DNA of 46,505 nt from a virus (taxonomy: Duplodnaviria > Heunggongvirae > Uroviricota > Caudoviricetes). Position 1 is the stretch's first letter; each line of letters opens with the position of its first letter. Below the pieces are notes generated by a model. It was given only the letters and a program-made list of their open reading frames with translations. It did not search any database and was not told the origin of the DNA. Both the position numbers and the translations under genes were made by a program. Where the stretch lies: the IMG/VR virus record IMGVR_UViG_2563366802_000006; one strand, written 5' to 3'. Below, piece by piece: positions 1 to 27,523 of this stretch.

Positions 1-1019
1 TTACGCCTTCTTTATATCCTCCATAATTCCAGAGTGGGACATATTTGGGACATTATCACCAAAAATGTCGTCTATTTTCCTCGCATGCTCTGTCAAATGA
101 TTAGGCGCAAGGTGAGCATACCTACGAACCATTTCTATGGACTCCCATCCGCCCATTTCCTGAAGCACTGATAATGGGACGCCTGACTGAATCAGCCAGC
201 TTGCCCAGGTGTGTCTGAGGTCATGGAAACGGAAATCTTCAATTCCTGCACGACGACAAGCTGATAGCCATGATGTCTTGCTGTCGATGCGCATCTTCCT
301 GACCGCAGGCGTTGATGTTCCATCTGCTCGCTTAGCCGCCTTGGTATGTACAAACACCCATTTGTGATGCTTGCCTATTTGATCACGCAACACTTTACAG
401 GCGGTATCGTTCAGCGCCACACCAATGGCGCGGTTTGATTTGCTCTCTTCTGGATTCACCCAGGCAACTCGTCGCTGCATGTCGATTTGTTGCCATTCCA
501 GATTTATGATGTTCGACTTTCTCAGACCAGTTGCCAGCGCAAACTTGACGACAGATTTCAGTGGTTCGGGGCACTCATCAATAAGGCGTTTTGCTTCCTC
601 CTTTTCCAGCCATCTGACTCGCTTGTTTCTGACCGCTGGTATCTTGATGACAGGCGCTTTTTCCAGCCACTTCCAGTCGCGTTCTGCAGCACGGAGAATG
701 GCCTTTATCATGGCAAGATGCTTTGCCTTTGTCTGAGTTGATACTGGCTTTGGTTCATAAACAGGCGGTTCTTTACCTTTCCTGATGGCGGCCTGAACTT
801 TCTGTTTCCATATTTCTTTCGTCTTTCTGTTATGCATTCTGCTTACAGCAGAGTAAATCTTTGCCTCCGAGATATCTTTAAGCCTTATACCCTCAAAATG
901 TTCAAGCCAGAACTCAATCCGGCTTTTATCTGAATCGAGAGATTTTTTATCAGCTTTTTCCTCAAGCCATCTTAGGCAGGCCTCTTCAAAAGTGACATCA
1001 GGTAAATCCCCTAGCTTTT

Positions 1020-3600
<2,581 letters not shown>

Positions 3601-4609: not shown

Positions 4610-5280
4610 TGCTCCCCAAATACAAAACCAATTTCAGCCAGTGCCTCGTCCATTTTTTCGATGAACTCCGGCACCATCTCGTCAAAACTCGCCATGTACT
4701 TTTCATCCCGCTCAACCACGACATAATGCAGTCCTTCACGCTTCATACGCGGGTCATAGTTGGCAAAGTACCAGGCATCTTTTCGTGTCACCCACATGCT
4801 GTACTGCACCTGGGCCATGTAAGCCGACTTTATGGCCTCGAAACCACCGAGCCGGAACTTCATGAAATCCCGGGAGGTAAACGGGCATTTCAGCTCAAGG
4901 CCATTGCCGTCACTGCATAAACCATCGGGAGAGCAGGCGGTGCGCATACTTTCGTCGCGATAGATGATCGGGGATTCAGTAACATTCACGCCGGAAGTGA
5001 ATTCAAACAGAGTTCTGGCGTCGTTCTCGTACTGTTTTCCCCATGCCAGCGCCTTAGCATTAACTTCCGGAGCCACACCGGTGCAAACCTCAGCCAGCAG
5101 GGTGTGGAAGTAGGACATTTTCATGTCAGGCCACTTCTTTCCTGAGCGGGGCTTGGCTATCACGTTGTGAGCTTCTGAAGCGGTGATGACGCCGAGCCGT
5201 AATTTGTGCCATGCATCATCCCCCTGTTCGACAGCTCTTACGTCGATCCCGGTACGCTGCAGTATAATGTCCGGTGTCAT
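4600..5280 (-). CDS. exo: Lambda exonuclease (Red-alpha)
   Basis: 226-aa ORF near-identical to lambda Exo ([36 protein letters not shown]...). Confidence 0.97.
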
Positions 5281-6582: not shown

Positions 6583-6715
6583 TTTTTGGGACTCCTGGCT
6601 GATTAAGTATGTCGATAAGGCGTTTCCATCCGTCACGTAATTTACGGGTGATTCGTTCAAGTAAAGATTCGGAAGGGCAGCCAGCAACAGGCCACCCTGC
6701 AATGGCATATTGCAT
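6551..6715 (-). CDS. cIII: cIII protease inhibitor
   Basis: Found by hand on the minus strand (below the 60-aa ORF-track cutoff): [54 protein letters not shown], 54 aa, matches lambda cIII. Confidence 0.85.
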   Translation of the reverse strand: MQYAIAGWPVAGCPSESLLERITRKLRDGWKRLIDILNQPGVPKNGSNTYGYPD

Positions 6716-6787
6716 GGTGTGCTCCTTATTTATACATAACGAAAAACGCCTCGAGTGAAGCGTTATTGGTATGCGGTAACGCCGCGC

Positions 6788-7165
6788 TCAGGCGGCTTTG
6801 ATAGTCATATCATCTGAATCAAATATTCCTGATGTATCGATATCGGTAATTCTTATTCCTTCGCTACCATCCATTGGAGGCCATCCTTCCTGACCATTTC
6901 CATCATTCCAGTCGAACTCACACACAACACCATATGCATTTAAGTCGCTTGAAATTGCTATAAGCAGAGCATGTTGCGCCAGCATGATTAATACAGCATT
7001 TAATACAGAGCCGTGTTTATTGAGTCGGTATTCAGAGTCTGACCAGAAATTATTAATCTGGTGAAGTTTTTCCTCTGTCATTACGTCATGGTCGATTTCA
7101 ATTTCTATTGATGCTTTCCAGTCGTAATCAATGGTAAGCGTAAACTGACCGCCGTATGTAGCCAT
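6788..7165 (-). CDS. ea10: Ea10-like protein
   Basis: 125-aa ORF in the position lambda ea10 occupies (next leftward of cIII); similar size. Confidence 0.7.
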   Translation of the reverse strand: MATYGGQFTLTIDYDWKASIEIEIDHDVMTEEKLHQINNFWSDSEYRLNKHGSVLNAVLIMLAQHALLIAISSDLNAYGVVCEFDWNDGNGQEGWPPMDGSEGIRITDIDTSGIFDSDDMTIKAA

Positions 7166-7218
7166 CAGACGAGAATTGGTAACTTAGACGCCCATCTGAT
7201 ATAGACGGACATCTAAGT

Positions 7219-7644
7219 ATGGAATTACAGGACTGGCGAAAAGAACCTCGTAAAAACTATTCGAATGAATTCAAACTTCGTATGGTGGAACTGGCATCAC
7301 AACCTGGAGCTTGTGTTGCACAGATTGCACGTGAAAATGGCGTCAATGATAATGTTATTTTCAAATGGCTCAGGCTCTGGCAGAACGAAGGGCGTGTTTC
7401 GCGGCGTCTTCCGGTAACGACCTCTTCTGACACTGGCGTTGAATTATTACCTGTAGAAATAACGCCGGATGAGCAGAAAGAACCTGTGGCGGCCATTGCG
7501 CCGTCTTTATCCACTTCCACTCAGACCAGAGTCAGTGCCAGTTCCTGCAAGGTGGAATTCCGTCACGGTAACATGACGCTGGAAAATCCATCGCCAGAGC
7601 TGCTCACAGTGTTGATCCGTGAACTGACCGGGAGGGGAAGATGA
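7219..7644 (+). CDS. IS66-family accessory protein TnpA (orf1)
   Basis: 141-aa ORF with HTH-like N-terminus; stop overlaps the next ORF. Confidence 0.8.
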   Translation: MELQDWRKEPRKNYSNEFKLRMVELASQPGACVAQIARENGVNDNVIFKWLRLWQNEGRVSRRLPVTTSSDTGVELLPVEITPDEQKEPVAAIAPSLSTSTQTRVSASSCKVEFRHGNMTLENPSPELLTVLIRELTGRGR

Positions 7645-7991
7645 TCTCACTCCCATCAGGTACCCGTATCTGGCTCGTTGCCGGCGTTACCGATATGCGT
7701 AAATCCTTCAACGGACTGGGAGAACAGGTACAACATGTGCTGAATGATAATCCCTTCTCCGGTCACCTGTTTATCTTCCGTGGCCGACGGGGTGACACCG
7801 TCAAAATTCTTTGGGCTGATGCTGATGGTCTGTGCCTGTTCACCAAACGCCTGGAGGAAGGCCAGTTTATCTGGCCTGCGGTACGTGACGGCAAGGTATC
7901 CATTACCCGCTCGCAACTGGCAATGCTCCTCGATAAGCTGGACTGGCGTCAGCCAAAAACATCCAGCCTTAACGCACTGACAATGTTGTAA
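7641..7991 (+). CDS. IS66-family TnpB (orf2)
   Basis: 116-aa ORF MISLPSGTRIWLVAGVTDMRKSFNGL... typical of IS66 orf2. Confidence 0.85.
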   Translation: MISLPSGTRIWLVAGVTDMRKSFNGLGEQVQHVLNDNPFSGHLFIFRGRRGDTVKILWADADGLCLFTKRLEEGQFIWPAVRDGKVSITRSQLAMLLDKLDWRQPKTSSLNALTML

Positions 7992-8021
7992 AAAACTCCT
8001 GACCGCATTATAAAAACGGTC

Positions 8022-9635
8022 ATGAGTCAGAAATACCTCATTCGCATCGCAGAGCTGGAAAGGTTGCTCTCTGAGCAGGCTGAAGCCCTCCGTCAGAAAG
8101 ACCAGCAACTGAGTCTGGTTGAAGAGACGGAAGCCTTCCTGCGCTCTGCACTGACACGTGCCGAAGAAAAGATCGAAGAAGATGAACGGGAAATAGAACA
8201 TCTGCGGGCTCAGATAGAAAAACTGCGCCGGATGCTGTTCGGTACCCGTTCTGAAAAACTGCGTCGTGAAGTTGAACTGGCTGAGGCTCTGCTGAAACAA
8301 CGTGAACAGGACAGCGATCGTTACAGTGGGCGGGAAGACGATCCTCAGGTTCCCCGCCAGTTGCGACAGTCGCGCCATCGTCGTCCGTTACCGGCACACC
8401 TTCCCCGTGAAATACACCGCCTGGAGCCAGAAGAAAGCTGTTGCCCGGAGTGTGGCGGTGAGCTGGATTATCTGGGGGAAGTCAGCGCTGAACAGCTGGA
8501 ACTGGTGAGCAGTGCCCTGAAAGTGATCCGCACAGAACGGGTAAAAAAAGCCTGTACAAAATGTGACTGTATTGTTGAAGCACCGGCGCCGTCCCGCCCG
8601 ATAGAGCGTGGTATCGCGGGCCCCGGATTACTTGCCCGCGTGTTAACGGGAAAATACTGCGAACATCTGCCACTGTATCGTCAGAGTGAAATCTTTGCCC
8701 GCCAGGGTGTCGAACTGAGCCGGGCCTTACTCTCCAACTGGGTTGACGCGTGCTGCCAGTTAATGACACCGGTGAATGATGCCCTGTACCGTTATGTAAT
8801 GAACACCCGCAAGATTCACACTGATGACACACCGGTAAAGGTACTGGCACCGGGTCAGAAAAAGGCGAAAACAGGGCGTATCTGGACGTATGTCCGGGAT
8901 GATCGCAATGTGGGTTCGTCATCTCCTCCAGCGGTCTGGTTCGCGTACTCGCCGAACCGGCAGGGGAAACACCCGGAGCAACACCTCCGCCCCTTCCGGG
9001 GTATCCTGCAGGCGGATGCGTTCACAGGTTACGACAGGTTGTTCAGTGCAGAACGTGAAGGTGGTGCACTGACAGAAGTTGCGTGCTGGGCCCATGCCCG
9101 GCGAAAAATCCACGATGTATACATCAGCAGCAAAAGTGCGACGGCAGAAGAAGCACTGAAGCGAATCAGTGAACTGTACGCCATCGAGGATGAAATACGG
9201 GGATTACCGGAGTCAGAGCGTCTTGCCGTCAGGCAGCAGCGAAGCAAAGTGTTACTGACGTCGCTGCATGAATGGATGGTGGAGAAGAATGGTACGCTGT
9301 CGAAAAAATCCAGACTGGGCGAAGCGTTCAGCTATGTACTGAATCAGTGGGATGCCCTCTGTTATTACAGTGATGACGGTCTGGCGGAGGCGGATAATAA
9401 TGCTGCGGAAAGAGCGCTTCGTGCAGTCTGTCTCGGAAAGAAAAACTTTATGTTCTTTGGCAGCGATCACGGCGGCGAGCGTGGAGCACTGTTGTACGGG
9501 CTGATCGGCACCTGCCGTCTGAACGGTATCGATCCGGAAGCGTATCTGCGCCATATCCTGAGCGTACTGCCGGAATGGCCTTCCAACCGAGTTGATGAAC
9601 TCCTGCCATGGAACGTAGTACTCACCAATAAATAA
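8022..9635 (+). CDS. IS66-family transposase TnpC (orf3)
   Basis: 537-aa ORF with N-terminal coiled coil, zinc-finger CPECGGEL...CTKC and a DDE-type core. Confidence 0.88.
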   Translation: MSQKYLIRIAELERLLSEQAEALRQKDQQLSLVEETEAFLRSALTRAEEKIEEDEREIEHLRAQIEKLRRMLFGTRSEKLRREVELAEALLKQREQDSDRYSGREDDPQVPRQLRQSRHRRPLPAHLPREIHRLEPEESCCPECGGELDYLGEVSAEQLELVSSALKVIRTERVKKACTKCDCIVEAPAPSRPIERGIAGPGLLARVLTGKYCEHLPLYRQSEIFARQGVELSRALLSNWVDACCQLMTPVNDALYRYVMNTRKIHTDDTPVKVLAPGQKKAKTGRIWTYVRDDRNVGSSSPPAVWFAYSPNRQGKHPEQHLRPFRGILQADAFTGYDRLFSAEREGGALTEVACWAHARRKIHDVYISSKSATAEEALKRISELYAIEDEIRGLPESERLAVRQQRSKVLLTSLHEWMVEKNGTLSKKSRLGEAFSYVLNQWDALCYYSDDGLAEADNNAAERALRAVCLGKKNFMFFGSDHGGERGALLYGLIGTCRLNGIDPEAYLRHILSVLPEWPSNRVDELLPWNVVLTNK

Positions 9636-9956: not shown

Positions 9957-10538
9957 ATGAACAACTCATGGTGGCAGGAACTAATGCATTTTTTCCTGCA
10001 AGGAATGACACTTAAACAGTTGATTCATATGCTAATCATCCTAATCATATTGATTATTGTTATGCCTATAAGCGTAAAAGAATGGATAAACCTGCATAAT
10101 CCAGAAATCCTTCCTCATTACTGGATGTATTACATCCTGTTGTTTTGCGTTAGCTATGTGCTTAACGGCGTTGTTAATTCCGCTTATCACGCTGTGACTG
10201 AAAGAATTGAGATATTCGCTGCTCAGAAGCGCAAATCTAAAGAAGAGAAATACGTGCAAGATTTGTTTGATTCGTTAACTCTTGGAGAAAGAGCGTATTT
10301 GGCATTCGCTGTAGCCGCTAATAACCAGCTAAAGACAGAAAAGGGAAGCCCTGAAGCAATCTCATTGCTCGAAAAAGGGCTTCTTATTCGGGTACCTTCT
10401 GCTACTGGATATCCTGAAATCGACCGTTTTGTTATCCCGGAACGCTATAGAAATGAGTGCTACATTAGGTTTGCTGGGAAGAAAGACAGTCTTATGGATG
10501 AACTTATCGCTCAGGATAAGCATGGCAAAAACAAGTAA
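9957..10538 (+). CDS. sieB: Superinfection exclusion protein SieB
   Basis: 193-aa ORF with N-terminal transmembrane stretch; matches lambda SieB as I recall it; opposite orientation to N, as in lambda. Confidence 0.8.
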   Translation: MNNSWWQELMHFFLQGMTLKQLIHMLIILIILIIVMPISVKEWINLHNPEILPHYWMYYILLFCVSYVLNGVVNSAYHAVTERIEIFAAQKRKSKEEKYVQDLFDSLTLGERAYLAFAVAANNQLKTEKGSPEAISLLEKGLLIRVPSATGYPEIDRFVIPERYRNECYIRFAGKKDSLMDELIAQDKHGKNK

Positions 10539-10554
10539 TTAGCAAATTAATTTA

Positions 10555-10827
10555 TCATCTCGCCGTCAGTTGTTTTGATTTCCGGTAGCCTGCCGCGTAA
10601 ATGGCTACGTTTGGCAGGCAAATACTTCCACTGCATTCATCTGCCTTCTTGCAGCGAAGGCTTCCGAGTGATGCTGCTTTGTCTGCTCTGACGCAACCAG
10701 AGAGCTTTAGCGCAATTTTTCGCGCCAGTCGCTGTTCTTGCATTGCCTGCTCACGTTGAGCCTGTCTGCGTGCTCTGCGGCGATTTCTGGCGTTATCGTC
10801 AGCCAGATATGTAATGACTACTGCCAT
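10555..10827 (-). CDS. N: N-type transcription antiterminator (P22 gp24 family)
   Basis: 90-aa ORF with arginine-rich N-terminus (NARNRRRARRQAQREQ) and C-terminus ...AAGYRKSKQLTAR resembling P22 gp24; sits between nutL and sieB. Confidence 0.8.
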   Translation of the reverse strand: MAVVITYLADDNARNRRRARRQAQREQAMQEQRLARKIALKLSGCVRADKAASLGSLRCKKADECSGSICLPNVAIYAAGYRKSKQLTAR

Positions 10828-16623: not shown

Positions 16624-16708
16624 AGTCAGAGATAACAATCAACTAATACTGTTTTGTTGATTTTTGCTTGTAATTGGCGTTCTGGTCTGAGTTTTGTGGA
16701 GTAAGTTG

Positions 16709-17092
16709 ATGCGTGATATTCAGATGGTTCTTGAGCGTTGGGGAGCGTGGGCGGCTAATAATCATGAAGATGTGACCTGGTCGTCCATTGCCGCCGGTTT
16801 TAAGGGATTAATTCCTTCAAAAGTAAAATCTCGCCCGCAATGTTGTGACGATGACGCGATGATCATTTGCGGGTGCATGGCCCGTCTGAAAAAGAACAAC
16901 AGCGATTTGCACGATTTATTAGTAGATTATTATGTAGTCGGTATGACATTCATGTCACTGGCAGGTAAGCATTGCTGCTCTGATGGTTATATCGGGAAAA
17001 GGTTACAAAAGGCTGAGGGCATAATTGAAGGGATGTTAATGGCATTAGATATCCGGTTAGAGATGGATATCGTTGTTAATAACTCTAATTAA
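16709..17092 (+). CDS. quuD: Late-gene antiterminator Q (phage 21/82-type, QuuD-like)
   Basis: Start at ATG 16709 ([22 protein letters not shown]...); matches DLP12 QuuD as I recall it. Confidence 0.9.
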
Positions 17093-17281: not shown

Positions 17282-18364
17282 TTAGAACTGGTAAACCAGA
17301 CCTACAGCAACGATGTCATCAGTATCAATACCAGCTGTTTTGGTAAACTTACTATCGTCAATTAAGTTGATTTTGTAATCAACAAAAGTGGACATGTTTT
17401 TATTAAAGTAGTAAGTAGCACCGACATCGACATACTTGACTAAGTCTCGGTCACCATGAACACCAAGGTCTTTACCTTTTGACTGAAGGTAAGCAACAGA
17501 TGGGCGCAGACCGAAGTCAAACTGATATTGTGCTACTGCTTCAAAGTTTTGTGCTTTGTTTGCAATATGGTTATTACCAAAAACGGTCATATTCTGAGTT
17601 TCAGAATATGTGGTAGCCAGATAGATATTGTTCGCATCATATTTCAGGCCTGCAGCCCATACTTCCGCATTTTTGCCGGAGGCATTGAATTTGCTCTTAC
17701 CATAGGCGACCTGACCGTCAGTGCGATCTGATTTAGCATAGGTTGCACCCACGCCGAATCCTTCATACTCATAAGTAGTGGAGAAACCGAAACCATCACC
17801 ATTGGCTTCAGTTACGTCAGTGCGGTCATTTTTACCCTGATACTGAGCAGCAAAGTTCAGGCCATCGACCAGACCAAAGAAGTCGTTGTTACGATAAGTT
17901 GCAACACCAGTAGTGCGACCAGTCATGAACACATCTGTTTGGGTCCAGGTATCACCACCGAATTCTGGCAGGACGTCAGTCCACGCACCGATGTCGTATG
18001 CTACACCGTAGTTACGGCCGTAATCGATTGAGCCGTAATCACCAAATTTCAGGCCTGCAAATGCAAGACGGGTTTTGTCTTTGGAAGAACCTTGAGATTC
18101 AGCGCGGTTGCCTTTGAATTCATATTCCCACTGACCGAAACCAGTCAGTTGATCGTTGATTTGGGTTTCACCTTTGAAGCCAAGACGGGCATAAGTAGTA
18201 TCACCATCATCTGCATCATTAGAGGAGAAGTAGTGCTTAGCATTAACTTTCCCGTACAGATCCAGCTTGTTACTGTCTTTATTATAAATTTCAGCTGCCT
18301 GAGCAGACATCGCCATCAGTACTGATGCAGCTACAGCAGAAATTGCCACTGTTAATTTTTTCAT
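17282..18364 (-). CDS. nmpC: Outer-membrane porin, OmpC/OmpF/PhoE family (NmpC-like), apparently intact
   Basis: 360-aa ORF with signal peptide [23 protein letters not shown] and C-terminal ...VAVGLVYQF; located between Q and the holin as in DLP12. Confidence 0.93.
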
Positions 18365-18792
18365 CGTGAGCCCTTTTTTTTGAACTATTATTAAAAAATG
18401 ATGTCACTGCGCGATAAATATTCATCTAATCAATGTGATTATTTCAAGATGTAAGTTTTGGTTTCTCGTTTAATTTGTGAAGTAGATCTCTATTTTTATC
18501 TGAACTTTTTTCTATCGAATCCTATTCATGGCTCTTGGCTGAATAAAAATAAATCTATTAGCCAATTTATATTAATGGCTGTTATTTATAAGTGCTCTAT
18601 AATTTGAAGGTTCAATTTAAATTGGCTAAAAATAACGCTGGAAATTATTTGTTGGTTATTTGTTGAGATTTGCTTATGTATTTGTAGTGGTGTTTTCAAT
18701 ACTCGGTAGCATTCTCGCAAATATCATTTAGTGGTTTACGTACGTAAAAAATTGGTTATGCTGTTAAGAGTGGTTACTTCGTCACACAGCTT

Positions 18793-18826
18793 AAACCCGC
18801 CGTCGAGCGGGTTTTTCCATTTTTTG
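18793..18826 (+). terminator. Rho-independent terminator candidate about 110 bp upstream of the holin gene
   Basis: Hairpin AAACCCGCCGTCGAGCGGGTTT followed by TTCCATTTTTT on the + strand. Confidence 0.5.
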
Positions 18827-18937
18827 AGTCTCGATATTAGCTGATAACCCAATACCTGAGTTATTCACTGACTCCGAGTCTGTTACGTTTCGTAGTATTC
18901 CCTCAATTTACACCCGCTTTGTCTGCGAGGTGGGGTT

Positions 18938-19845: not shown

Positions 19846-20379
19846 ATGAACGCAAAAATCAGATACGGCCTGTCGGCTGCCGTTCTGGCACTGATTGCCG
19901 TCGGTGCGCCTGCGCCTGATATTCTCGACCAGTTTCTGGATGAAAAAGAAGGTAACCACACAACGGCATACCGCGATGGTTCCGGCATCTGGACCATCTG
20001 TCGGGGTGCCACGGTGGTGGATGGAAAACCCGTTTTTCCCGGTATGAAACTGTCGAAGGAAAAATGCGACCAGGTTAACGCCATTGAACGGGATAAGGCG
20101 CTGGCATGGGTGGAGCGCAATATTAAAGTGCCACTGACCGAACCACAGAAAGCGGGTATCGCGTCATTTTGTCCCTATAACATTGGCCCCGGTAAGTGTT
20201 TCCCGTCGACGTTTTATAAGCGGCTGAATGCCGGTGATCGTAAAGGTGCATGCGAGGCGATTCGCTGGTGGATAAAAGATGGTGGGCGCGATTGCCGCAT
20301 ACGTTCAAATAACTGCTATGGACAGGTTATTCGTCGTGACCAGGAAAGCGCATTAGCCTGTTGGGGGATAGATCAGTGA
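19846..20379 (+). CDS. SAR endolysin (T4-lysozyme fold, GH24)
   Basis: N-terminal Gly/Ala-rich signal-anchor-release segment ([17 protein letters not shown]) and catalytic E-8-D-5-T triad ([16 protein letters not shown]); the expected partner of a pinholin. Confidence 0.9.
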
Positions 20380-20834
20380 GCAGAGTCGCCGCGATTATTT
20401 ATGCTCTGGTTATCTGCATCATCGTCTGCCTGTCATGGGCTGTTAATCATTACCGTGATAACGCAATCGCCTACAAAGAGCAGCGCGATAACAAGGCCAG
20501 TGAACTGGAGAAGGCGAACGCCACCATCGCTGACATGCGGAAGCGTCAACGTGATGTAGCAGAACTCGACGCAAGATACACAAAGGAGCTTGCTGATGCT
20601 AACGCGACTATCGAAAGTCTCCGTGCTGATGTTTCTGCTGGGCGTAAGCGCCTGCAAGTCGCCGCCACCTGTGCAAAGTCAACGACCGGAGCCAGCGGCA
20701 TGGGCGATGGAGAAAGCCCAAGACTTACAGCAGATGCTGAACTCAATTATTACCGTCTCCGAAGTGGAATCGACAAGATAACCGCGCAGGTTAACTACCT
20801 GCAGGAATACATCAGGACGCAATGCCTGAAATAA
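20376..20834 (+). CDS. Rz: Rz i-spanin
   Basis: GTG start overlapping the endolysin stop ([29 protein letters not shown]...), matching DLP12 RzpD; N-terminal transmembrane segment and coiled coil. Confidence 0.88.
20590..20781 (+). CDS. Rz1: Rz1 o-spanin lipoprotein, embedded in the +1 frame of Rz
   Basis: Signal peptide with lipobox (LLGVSAC) followed by a proline-rich segment ([13 protein letters not shown]); wholly inside Rz. Exact start uncertain. Confidence 0.7.
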
Positions 20835-20891: not shown

Positions 20892-21039
20892 CATCTGAAT
20901 TTCACAGCGCATCTCACGCGCATATTACATCACCCGAGCCTTTCAGAAAGTTGAGCCTGAGAACTGCCGTATATGGTGGCGACCATCTCGGGGCGGCTTT
21001 TCTGTGAGACAGGCTCACTTTCTAAAAGGTAAAGACGCT

Positions 21040-21528
21040 ATGAACCAATTAGAAGAAAAGCTTCAAAGAATGATTTCCTTATACAAGGAAGATAACTGCC
21101 AAAAAGTTCCTGAAAACATCGCAGAGTTAATGGAATTGGCAAGTGAATTTTCTGGCATGCTTAAGTCGTCAGGTGTTCGGTCAGCGTTCTTTGTTGAAAT
21201 GCTGATGCACGGCGGACTTATGGCAACAATGAGACGTGTAATGGAAGACCAGAGAAAAGAACCTCCTCAGGTATACGTTTTGTCATCGAAGAAAACTGGG
21301 CTAACCAAAATTGGGTATTCATCCAACATTCCACAACGCATCAAATCGCTTGGCAACTCTGGACCAGACTGCTTGAAGCTTGAGTGCCTGATCCCTGGTG
21401 GAAGAGAAACTGAAAACATGCTTCATCGCAAATTTGCCGCAAAGAGAAAGCACGGTGAATGGTTCGCCCTGTCCAAGGATGACATTGAGGGATTGAAATC
21501 TGTAGCGATTACTTCTGATGGCTATTAA
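21040..21528 (+). CDS. T5orf172 / GIY-YIG-like domain protein (moron)
   Basis: Start chosen at ATG 21040 (MNQLEEKL...); C-terminal half has the T5orf172-type pattern VYVLSSKKTGLTKIGYSSNIPQRIKSL...HGEWFALS. Confidence 0.6.
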   Translation: MNQLEEKLQRMISLYKEDNCQKVPENIAELMELASEFSGMLKSSGVRSAFFVEMLMHGGLMATMRRVMEDQRKEPPQVYVLSSKKTGLTKIGYSSNIPQRIKSLGNSGPDCLKLECLIPGGRETENMLHRKFAAKRKHGEWFALSKDDIEGLKSVAITSDGY

Positions 21529-22206
21529 TGCTTGTTTAGAGCAATTTTCATAACAACTCTTCATTACAAAGCCCATCTACTGGTGGGCTTGATAATGAAA
21601 CCGTGATTTACATCCCCACAATCCGGGTATGTAAAAGATAGTTCAGGCGAGAACGGATTTAACTAAATCTGTGCGCCACCAGTTAACGGCAGTACCACGA
21701 AACAACCCAAGCCAGTAAGTGGGGAAATAACACCGGCAGCCACTGAAAGATGAACCTCCTGCCTTATGGCAAAAAAGATTCTTTGTGGTGGTGGACTGAT
21801 GGAAAGACATCCTAATTTCAGCCAAACATTGAAGGAGTTGTTATGTCAGCAGAAGGTTTCAATAACCCATCAAAATTCCGGGATGAGTGGGATAGCAGCG
21901 TAAAGAGTAAGTGATGCCATCACAAAAGCCATTCCCTACAGAGTGGCTTTGATAATGGCTTATACCCTACACGGGATAACTTAACTGATATCCCTTTTAA
22001 AGGATAAAGGTATTCAAGCCTGACACATCATGCGCTGTATCGTCGCCGTGTTCCCGTATTAACAGAGACCGTAGCCCGACGGGGAACTCCTTCTGCGCGA
22101 GTGTGCGGGAATAATCAAAAACGATGCACACCGGGGTTACCGGGTACACATATTTCATCATGCCAGCGAGTCCGGTTCTGGCACGGAAGAAACCGGACGT
22201 TATGAT

Positions 22207-22617
22207 TTAGTGCGGAAATATTTGTGTAGTGTTCTGAATGTTCTCAGTAAAGAGTAATGAATTATCAAAGGTATAGTAATACCTTTTGTTTTCGTGGATA
22301 TTTGTAATCCATCTGAAAACCCCTGCTGTAGCAAGATTTTTCCTGTATTCGTAAAATGATAACTCTCCTGATTTGAATCCTTTTAAGGTGGCTTCTATAA
22401 GGCATTTATTTTTTGAAAATCTTACATTTACAACCTTACCCTGTCCTTTTATTAAAACCGTATTATCGTTTTCAAGAACAAGATGAATATTCTCTGTGGC
22501 TAAATAGTAAATGTAATGTGAGACATTGTGACGTTTTAGTTCAGAATAAAACCAGTGATAGTTTAAATTATTTCGCACTTTATCGAATATTTGTTTAAAA
22601 ATGGCAACCTGAGCCAT
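22207..22617 (-). CDS. ybcV: YbcV-like protein (DUF1398), low-GC moron
   Basis: Start at [45 protein letters not shown]...; resembles DLP12 YbcV as I recall it. Confidence 0.7.
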
Positions 22618-22674
22618 TGTAGTACCTTCCATGTGATATGAGGGGGCGTAGTCTGCACGATTATCTAGATTGCT

Positions 22675-22908
22675 TCAATCTGGTCTAACCTGTTTTCTGA
22701 GCAATTCAGTAATGTCACTCTTTTCTTTGTTTGCTTCAGGCGAAACTCTTTTTTCTGAGCACAGTCTCCGGCGGCAGGCTTCAATGACCCAGGCTGAGAA
22801 ATTCCCGGACCCTTTTTGAACAAGAGCGATGTTAATTTGTTCAATCATTTGGTTAGGAAAGCGGATGTTGCGGGTTGTTGTTCTGCGGGTTCTGTTCTTC
22901 GTTGACAT
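22675..22908 (-). CDS. ylcI: YlcI-like protein (DUF3950)
   Basis: 77-aa MSTKNRTRRTTTRNIRFPNQMIEQINIALVQKGSGNFSAWVIEACRRRL...; the ORF-track extension to 23181 runs across cos and is not used. Confidence 0.7.
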   Translation of the reverse strand: MSTKNRTRRTTTRNIRFPNQMIEQINIALVQKGSGNFSAWVIEACRRRLCSEKRVSPEANKEKSDITELLRKQVRPD

Positions 22909-23039
22909 GAGGTTGTCCCGTATTCTGTGTTGCTGATTTGTATTGTCTGAAGTTTTTTTTACGTTAAGTTGATGCAGATCAATTAATACGATACCTGCGT
23001 CATAATTGATTATTTGACGTGGTTTGATGGCGTAGATGC

Positions 23040-23290
23040 ACGTTGTGACATGTAGATGATAATTATTATCATTTTGCGGGTCCTTTCCGGCGATCCGACA
23101 GGTTACGGGGCGGCGACCTCGCGGGTTTTCGCTATTTATGAAAATTTTCCGGTTTAAGGCGTTTCCGTTCTTCTTCGTCATAACTTAATGTTTTTATTTA
23201 AAATACCCTCTGAAAAGAAAGGAAACGACAGGTGCTGAAAGCGAGCTTTTTGGCCTCTGTCGTTTCCTTTCTCTGTTTTTGTCCGTGGAA
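23040..23290. promoter_or_regulatory. cos packaging site (cosQ-cosN-cosB); cosN 12-nt cohesive end GGGCGGCGACCT at 23108-23119
   Basis: Sequence from 23108 onward (GGGCGGCGACCTCGCGGGTTTTCGCTATTTATGAAAATTTTCCGG...) matches the left end of the lambda genome as I recall it. Confidence 0.92.
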
Positions 23291-23296
23291 TGAACA

Positions 23297-23816
23297 ATGG
23301 AAGTCAACAAAAAGCAGCTGGCTGACATTTTCGGCGCGAGTATCCGTACCATTCAGAACTGGCAGGAGCAGGGAATGCCCGTTCTGCGGGGTGGTGGGAA
23401 GGGTAATGAGGTGCTTTATGATTCTGCCGCCGTCATAAAATGGTATGCCGAAAGGGATGCTGAAATTGAGAACGAAAAGCTGCGCCGGGAAGTTGAAGAA
23501 CTGCGGCAGGCCAGCGAGACAGATCTCCAGCCAGGGACTATTGAGTACGAACGCCATCGACTTACGCGTGCGCAGGCCGACGCACAGGAGCTGAAAAATG
23601 CCAGAGACTCCGCTGAAGTGGTGGAAACCGCATTCTGTACTTTCGTGCTGTCGCGGATCGCAGGTGAAATTGCCAGTATTCTCGACGGGATCCCCCTGTC
23701 GGTGCAGCGGCGTTTTCCGGAACTGGAAAACCGACATGTTGATTTCCTGAAACGGGATATCATCAAAGCCATGAACAAAGCAGCCGCGCTGGATGAACTG
23801 ATACCGGGGTTGCTGA

Positions 23817-23842
<26 letters not shown>
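23297..23842 (+). CDS. nu1: Terminase small subunit Nu1
   Basis: 181-aa ORF near-identical to lambda Nu1. Confidence 0.97.

Positions 23843-27523
<3,681 letters not shown>

Follow-up and report, generated by a model that had tools for sequence, protein, structure and literature searches.

Directly ahead of the cohesive-end site (cos) of a lambdoid prophage, two small genes lie antisense to the late operon, and the question that they raise is whether both are cargo that alters the host or whether one of them has a role in the phage itself. The prophage is the virus record IMGVR_UViG_2563366802_000006, a stretch of 46,505 nucleotides that was analysed over its full length (the window). The original prediction had taken the two genes, a very AT-rich DUF1398-like one and a DUF3950-like one, for YbcV-like and YlcI-like morons carrying lysogenic-conversion functions. 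The comparison with related phages, prophages and satellites points instead to two functionally separable units and not to a pair of equivalent morons, with DUF3950 encoding a regulator and DUF1398 being cargo; this explanation, taken as a whole, appears to have an even chance of being correct.

Both open reading frames (ORFs) are in the ORF list on the minus strand, as predicted, and the profile searches that had been proposed as a check supported them. The DUF1398 protein matches Pfam DUF1398 (PF07166; YbcV/YdfO/YcgX) over 119 of 119 profile positions (E 3.3e-43, 147 bits against a cut-off of 22). The DUF3950 protein scores 72.8 bits against Pfam DUF3950 (E 2e-20, cut-off 25) and 35.2 bits against NCBIfam YlcI_YnfO_N (cut-off 30), and contains the sequence NFSAWV, which includes the family's conserved NFSAW. 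Since both Pfam scores are far above the curated thresholds, the ORFs are not chance occurrences. The families had thus been named correctly, although the arrangement is that of YnfO/YdfO in the Qin prophage of Escherichia coli K-12 and not that of YlcI/YbcW/YbcV in DLP12. With regard to the start of the DUF1398 gene, the NCBI Prokaryotic Genome Annotation Pipeline (PGAP) uses the second ATG, at 22617, for the identical RefSeq gene, and a GGAAGG is found 7 nt upstream of that codon. A longer reading of the DUF3950 gene across cos (22675..23181, 168 aa) was rejected, as the extension is absent in lambda and the homology with Terminase_2-type phages starts at the internal ATG.

The gene pair is an already known, ordinary and catalogued module, since it is of the Qin ynfO-ydfO type and many E. 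coli genomes have it in identical form. Of 5426 complete E. coli genomes, 4254 have a match to the 1-kb stretch 22100..23120, many with 100% identity, and the identical copies are annotated as 'DUF1398 domain-containing protein', the label also borne by RefSeq copies of this gene, and 'YlcI/YnfO family protein'. The locus shares with Qin (b4533, b1549; YdfO, PDB 2HH8) both families, their order and their strand relative to a Nu1 homologue (nohA in Qin), as well as gene lengths of 234 and 411 nt and a 57-nt gap, with 93% nucleotide identity overall; phmmer aligns the DUF1398 protein with YdfO over residues 1-140 (E 1.4e-69), at about 80% identity by eye. Unlike in Qin, which is a remnant, the module lies here within an apparently complete prophage, and the central third of DUF1398 is another mosaic variant (33 residues).

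Conservation and mosaicism beside three terminase types

The neighbourhoods of the two genes were compared in 80 IMG/VR contigs, each centred on DUF3950. The adjoining gene for the small terminase subunit (TerS) is a lambda-type Nu1 (at least 90% identity) in 37 contigs, a Nu1 of 41-73% identity in 19 and a Terminase_2-type TerS in 16; six contigs have too little flank, and in two no such gene was found. Whichever of the three types adjoins, DUF3950 is antisense to and divergent from the small-terminase gene. DUF1398 follows DUF3950 in 37 of the 80 contigs, nearly all of the lambda Nu1 type, and the remaining 43 carry DUF3950 without it. Among phage records, tblastn detected DUF3950 in 153 and DUF1398 in 43. 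An example of the wider arrangement is the Shiga toxin (Stx) phage 2851, with the order holin-endolysin-Rz-KilA-x-[DUF3950 antisense]-HNH-TerS-TerL, where TerL is the large terminase subunit.

The edges of homology narrow down what is shared. The window and lambda are near-identical from cos to about codon 50 of DUF3950 and divergent beyond, and in Terminase_2-type phages homology begins at the DUF3950 ATG and stops near codon 50, so that the universally conserved piece is only the ~150 nt that code for the N-terminal domain. Over the N-terminal 52 codons, the ratio of nonsynonymous to synonymous substitution rates (dN/dS) is 0.09 at a dS of up to ~0.9 (24 distinct alleles), which argues for a constraint on the protein. 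The invariant core reads [KR]-x-I-R-F-P-h-x-L-h-E-x-I ... N-F-S-A-W-V-h-[ED]-A-C, and the guanine-plus-cytosine (GC) content of the domain, 48.1%, is not atypical for the window. The C-terminal tails, on the other hand, fall into discrete types, giving protein lengths of 61 to 79 aa, and change with the downstream DNA because of the mosaic joint at about codon 50. Of the 37 cases of the 77-aa type with the 'CSEKRVS...' tail, 34 have DUF1398 at a distance of 56-57 nt downstream, and with tails of all other types it is never within 2.5 kb. The tail is predicted at low confidence, with a predicted local distance difference test score (pLDDT) of 51-54, and is probably unstructured.

In composition, DUF1398 stands out as had been predicted: its GC content is 31.4% against 51.3% for the window, and in 411-nt windows just one other stretch falls below 36% GC. 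The gene is under purifying selection (dN/dS 0.22, 16 alleles), and its homologue in lambda, lambdap78, is non-essential by CRISPR interference (PMC10695390). Being patchy at the same position among relatives and atypical in composition, with a promoter-like site and a hairpin of its own and a dispensable homologue in lambda, DUF1398 is plausibly a moron, that is, optional accessory cargo. This part of the original proposal has therefore held. Its extension to DUF3950 has not, as this gene is present in every related phage examined, including all 80 contigs centred on it, and is fixed beside the small-terminase gene over three terminase types, with an N-terminal domain of ordinary GC content.

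Lambda and DLP12 share with the window both families and the slot between the lysis genes and cos. They differ in having a plus-strand gene (ybcW/lambdap79) between the two genes, in a different and shorter DUF3950 tail (64 aa) and in the presence of bor, and lambda differs further in a DUF1398 ORF annotated with a 41-residue N-terminal extension. In the lambda-derived DE3 record, no coding sequence (CDS) covers the 64-aa DUF3950 ORF, and the same is true of the matching place in HK629 and HK630.

The DUF3950 family is tiny, with 108 matches at E<=1e-3 among 1.84 billion representative proteins, many of which are noisy reads of lambda control DNA; scans of viral contigs with P0332 and P0293 gave no matches. 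A scan of genome contigs for DUF1398 found mostly lambda DNA contaminating unrelated assemblies and carries little taxonomic information. The lambda allele of DUF1398 was seen in assemblies labelled Pseudomonas, Kitasatospora, Brevibacillus, Flavobacterium, Shewanella and others, probably as sequencing-control contamination, since many of the contigs are ~3.5 kb or 48 kb long. The record of 'Campylobacter phage CJLB-4' (MW057783.1, 48,361 bp) carries lambda-type alleles of both DUF3950 and DUF1398, whose identities equal those of lambda records and whose positions are lambda-like.

Predicted products and transcription signals

The DUF3950 product is a very basic 9-kDa protein with an isoelectric point (pI) of 10.9, and its core resembles the ribbon-helix-helix (RHH) repressors Arc and Mnt of phage P22. 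Like these, it is a small phage-encoded protein of similar size with a basic N-terminal arm, and the succession N-[IL]-R-[FW]-P, helix, G-x-x-x-x-S, helix is common to them, with N14-I-R-F-P18 ... G33 ... S38 spaced identically to N11-L-R-W-P15 ... G30 ... S35 of Arc (Arc and Mnt sequences checked against the PDB). The genomic location is different, immI being the site in P22. An AlphaFold2 model of the monomer (pLDDT 66) has residues 1-18 unstructured and helices at 19-32 and 34-53. An RHH protomer, whose strand forms only in the dimer, would be expected to show this coil-helix-helix order. Alignment with hhalign gave the expected register at P 0.0055 against Arc and P 0.0039 against Arc and Mnt together, although these matches are weak, with a probability below 10%. 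No RHH match was obtained by phmmer or hmmsearch against the PDB or Pfam at E<=10, nor did Foldseek match the model to the PDB or BFVD. The resemblance to DNA-binding Arc/Mnt-type proteins is thus suggestive.

DUF3950 is a conserved and probably DNA-binding fixture of the lysis/packaging junction in lambdoid phages rather than cargo. Its constrained N-terminal 50 residues would most likely form an Arc/Mnt-type RHH dimer that binds DNA, and the protein may be produced in the quiescent or early state and act as a small repressor of transcription. In that role it would control the leftward transcription of the cargo behind it or, alternatively, damp transcription crossing the junction towards cos and the terminase genes. 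It recurs as a small gene running counter to a long unidirectional operon, directly ahead of a module that would do harm if expressed at the wrong time, and a quiescent-state repressor fits this context better than a packaging factor does.

The DNA upstream of DUF3950 offers a candidate target. Its start codon is 199 nt from cosN, in keeping with the predicted position immediately before cos, and the sequence GGGTCCT at 23078..23084 (+) is presumably cosQ, going by the lambda coordinates. The intervening DNA (Table 1) is kept in cos-type relatives and replaced by unrelated sequence in Terminase_2-type phages. It holds an imperfect palindrome that is conserved in cos-type relatives and may be an operator or a hairpin in the 5' untranslated region; in a divergent cos-type group (L128/L130), one position seems, by eye, to be changed in both arms with the symmetry kept.

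The DUF1398 product appears to be a soluble cytoplasmic protein (pI 9.4) encoded by an AT-rich, horizontally acquired insert, which is present in about half of the related phages and would be dispensable for lytic growth. Neither a signal peptide nor a transmembrane segment was found in it. The labels 'putative envelope protein' and 'head protein' attached to the family (PHROG 413, lambda lambdap78) are unsupported, as the protein has no hydrophobic segment (maximum Kyte-Doolittle value over 19 residues 0.39). The lambda homologue is moreover non-essential, as mentioned above, and the late operon runs in the opposite direction to the gene; these labels are treated as annotation artefacts that should not be propagated.

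A promoter-like site for DUF1398 sits within the last codons of DUF3950 and overlaps a PdhR-box-like 17-mer, AACAGGTTAGACCAGAT (22678..22694), which aligns with the K-12 ynfO/ydfO site of Qin with a difference of one spacer base. Within it, TGGTCTAACC occupies 22681..22690, a short core that by itself is not above chance. In K-12, systematic evolution of ligands by exponential enrichment (SELEX) placed PdhR peaks at ybcV/ybcW and within ynfO/ydfO, and ybcV mRNA was 10-fold lower in a pdhR mutant by reverse-transcription quantitative PCR (RT-qPCR; PMC7660256). DUF1398 is probably expressed from the prophage under the control of the host pyruvate sensor PdhR. The ybcW and ylcI transcripts of K-12 are convergent and overlapping (PMC12288877).

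Twelve distinct sequences downstream of DUF1398 share a GC-rich hairpin behind the stop codon, in which one base pair differs from K-12 Qin by a compensatory change (T:A to C:G). On the minus strand the hairpin lacks a U-tract; judging from the sequence, it is probably the 3' end of the DUF1398 transcript. Further on, a conserved stem-loop in the sense of the late transcript flanks the DUF1398 unit, of which it may be a part. In this structure, 96.7% of cells are paired, compared with 31-66% in slid controls, and five compensatory changes affect both sides (0 of 500 shuffles); its many G.U pairs are compatible only with the plus strand. The single-sequence z-score was not significant and an Rfam search gave no match. 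At 152 loci, lambda, DLP12 and Stx phage 2851 among them, the DNA of this region is conserved, and in lambda the segment overlaps the bor promoter annotated in HK629. A 54-aa ORF on the other strand (21997..22161), labelled 'hypothetical protein' in phages ev099 and Chlobot, was rejected as a gene because its homologues have frameshifting indels although the DNA is conserved.

Table 1. Coordinates of the two genes, their signals and the prophage landmarks in the window.
Feature	Coordinates	Strand	Remarks
Integrase	1..1164	-	prophage landmark
Q antiterminator	16694..17092		prophage landmark
Lysozyme	19846..20379		prophage landmark
Rz	20361..20834		prophage landmark
Conserved stem-loop	22037..22127	+	~90 nt, late-transcript sense; under the 54-aa ORF (-)
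GC-rich hairpin	22170..22198		GTCCGGTT ... AACCGGAC; 9 nt past the DUF1398 stop codon; read from sequence
DUF1398 gene (YdfO/YbcV family)	22207..22617	-	136 aa from the PGAP start; in-frame upstream ATG at 22632 gives 141 aa
Promoter-like site of DUF1398	22660..22694	-	-35 TAGACC 22687..22682, 16-nt spacer, -10 GATAAT 22665..22660; consensus scan 9/12
DUF3950 gene (YnfO/YlcI family)	22675..22908	-	77 aa; conserved basic N-terminal domain (residues 1-52, Arc/Mnt-like motif NIRFP...G..N.S) and variable C-terminal tail
Intergenic region, DUF3950 start codon to cosQ	22909..23077		holds the imperfect palindrome and an AT-rich palindrome (23055..23072)
Imperfect palindrome	22978..23010		ATCAATTAATACG/CGTCATAATTGAT; 70-100 nt upstream of the DUF3950 start codon
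cosN	23108..23119	+	12-nt cohesive-end sequence GGGCGGCGACCT; exact match to lambda; aligned with the lambda/DE3 'cos site' feature
Nu1 small terminase subunit	23297..23842	+	Pfam Phage_Nu1 E 3.9e-101; divergent from the DUF3950 gene
Terminase A	23817..25742		prophage landmark

The window is a complete, or at least apparently complete, lambdoid prophage. It contains two insertion sequences, IS21 (rve integrase core and IstB) at 1389..3190 and IS66 (TnpA-like helix-turn-helix, TnpB, DDE transposase) at 7219..9635, so that the element may have ceased to be fully functional as a phage. SieB is found at 9957..10538. A full-length Gram-negative porin gene (Porin_1 E 2e-151; 17282..18364, -) lies antisense between Q and the lysis genes, a classical moron position, and adjoins an AT-rich island (18150..18900) that is the window's only other stretch below 36% GC. 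Between Rz and the DUF1398 unit, a T5orf172/MUG113 (GIY-YIG-like) gene is located on the late strand (21004..21528, +; Pfam E 7e-15), with a weak PADLOC match to the candidate system PDC-S57 (E 8e-6); its relatives are labelled 'KilA-N domain-containing' or 'GIY-YIG nuclease', and it is interrupted by IS66 in strain 203740.

Satellites and alternative readings

The DUF3950 family extends to phage satellites. A divergent subgroup (65-67 aa) is found antisense between alpA and the primase gene in satellites resembling phage-inducible chromosomal islands (PICIs), a zone in which a study of helper-embedded satellites places DNA-interactive regulators and immunity functions. Furthermore, in five protein clusters (120-129 aa, 44-100% identical) DUF3950 is fused to the N-terminal helix-turn-helix (HTH) of a Terminase_2 small terminase, with both domains above their Pfam cut-offs, and the fusion genes adjoin int and an AlpA-like gene in satellites. 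The texts searched do not mention such a fusion protein. In E. coli CP027459.1 (3712563-3726925; L203, also L204-L210), a 60-aa DUF3950 gene and a fusion gene of 120 aa lie beside alpA and int (6590..7363) in a small PICI-like satellite. The satellite interrupts the TerL gene of a lambdoid prophage, where an N-terminal stump of 93 aa remains at 9040..9321, and this prophage has a DUF3950 gene of its own at 10576..10776; a satellite embedded in the terminase gene of its helper prophage is a published configuration (PMC10111431). The fusion protein could be a TerS mimic resembling Rpp, a protein of E. coli PICIs. In Pasteurella phage Pmp7 (OR544138.1), a 10.7-kb satellite-like element, an unannotated 59-aa ORF of the DUF3950 family (MATGNKNNKSLKKGIRFPHELIQQIDRAVEVESTKGEKTNFSSWVIDACKAKLEKSNNE) was observed at about 4853..5029 (+), antisense inside an annotated 225-aa 'transcriptional repressor' CDS. 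Because the tblastn match is on the strand opposite to the annotated gene, that label was not transferred to DUF3950.

Several observations weigh against the reading of DUF3950 as a regulator with DUF1398 as its neighbouring cargo. A consensus scan detected no sigma-70 promoter above 8/12 upstream of the DUF3950 gene. The residues that would read the DNA are invariant, yet cos-type and Terminase_2-type phages have no operator-like sequence in common upstream of the gene, which is awkward for simple autoregulation by DUF3950; with the upstream DNA of the Terminase_2 type being unrelated, no conserved operator in cis is apparent. The adjacency to TerS may just reflect the gene's place at the end of the lysis region. 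As for DUF1398, the link to PdhR comes from a single SELEX/RT-qPCR study on the K-12 homologues, and the AlphaFold2 model of the protein, with 13 near-identical homologues as input, has a pLDDT of 45 and gives nothing on its activity.

Of the alternatives, a role linked to packaging would have YnfO/YlcI act with or against the small terminase or cos, either by binding TerS or DNA beside cos and so stopping cos cleavage or packaging in the lysogen, or by excluding superinfecting cos phages. The constant divergent adjacency to TerS over Nu1, divergent Nu1 and Terminase_2/HNH modules speaks for it, as do the five clusters of fusions to a TerS-type HTH, which may keep a terminase-directed role possible, and the listing of YlcI/YnfO in capsid-forming PICIs. 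There is also precedent for small prophage and satellite proteins that target TerS. TerI of Listeria phage phi10403S, which is antisense and constitutively transcribed in lysogens, and Rpp, which mimics the DNA-binding domain of TerS, both act on the small terminase; DUF3950 might be functionally comparable, and its Terminase_2 fusions might act as mimics in the same way as Rpp, although there is no sequence relationship and the action of DUF3950 on the terminase is a hypothesis. The reading nevertheless appears unlikely. The gene is antisense to the late operon and should be off when terminase acts, and PICI-like satellites place the family between alpA and the primase gene, away from TerS. 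DUF3950 and TerS of Terminase_2-type phages are separated by an HNH gene and some 700 bp, and the upstream DNA is unrelated. Minimal cos fragments, moreover, package without the DUF3950 region.

The pairing of tail and cargo could also be taken to mean that YnfO, as an RHH antitoxin, neutralises YdfO through its C-terminal tail. The layout, with a small RHH-like gene bearing a tail upstream of a 136-aa gene on one strand, and the association of the 'CSEKRVS...' tail, and of no other, with DUF1398 would agree with a toxin-antitoxin-like system. Co-occurrence is not obligate, however, and for this reason the pair was rejected as the principal explanation: more than half of the contigs, and about 110 phage records as well, have DUF3950 but lack DUF1398, and DUF1398 occurs without the 'CSEKRVS...' tail, with ybcW intervening on the other strand in lambda and DLP12. 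The 57-nt gap has a separate promoter-like site, there is no match to a toxin family or PADLOC model, and no toxicity has been reported. The link between tail and cargo is explained equally well by a recombination joint at codon ~50, with the tail, the DUF1398 promoter and DUF1398 forming one travelling insert. This is favoured over a partner-specific tail because lambda and DLP12 combine DUF1398 with another tail and an intervening gene, because DUF3950 so often lacks DUF1398 and because the tail is predicted at low confidence. A toxin-antitoxin system is thus very improbable. It is also doubtful, with some small chance of being right, that both genes serve lysogenic conversion, as moron cargo that is expressed independently, changes the host phenotype and has no phage role. 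They are antisense and occupy the slot of lambda bor, homologues are transcribed from cryptic prophages of K-12 (PMC7660256, PMC12288877), and the composition of DUF1398 is moron-like. Like bor and lom, they are antisense or independently transcribed genes within the late region, and DUF1398 has the slot, the atypical composition and the dispensability in common with bor. Bor and Lom are, however, outer-membrane proteins with known phenotypes, unlike DUF1398 with its lack of a signal peptide or transmembrane segment, and DUF3950 is not variable as bor and lom are; it is universal, position-fixed and common to satellites, unlike cargo. Full-text literature searches found no functional study of either family and no phenotype. 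Among PADLOC defence models, DUF3950 has no match and DUF1398 matches only Csx23 (E 0.025), so that the sole support for lysogenic-conversion cargo is the position.

Meaning for lambdoid phages and their satellites

Both families are functionally blank although lambda itself has them, and the comparison presented here sets them apart. DUF1398 is the optional cargo and may plausibly be controlled by PdhR, the pyruvate sensor of the host. DUF3950 is strongly constrained, position-fixed, probably DNA-binding and common to phage satellites. A more far-reaching and rather improbable version of the regulator reading would make DUF3950 an unrecognised guard of junctions in lambdoid phages and satellites, an RHH protein that in the quiescent state blocks transcription or DNA transactions into dangerous modules, namely cos and terminase in prophages and the replication module in PICI-type satellites. 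The form fused to a TerS-type HTH would then interfere with or redirect recognition by the small terminase. If this were true, lambda would have a functional regulator beside cos for which several lambda-type records carry no CDS. More generally, if DUF3950 regulates transcription or packaging at the junction, it would be a new component of the best-studied phage, and such a role would explain why the gene travels with every terminase type.

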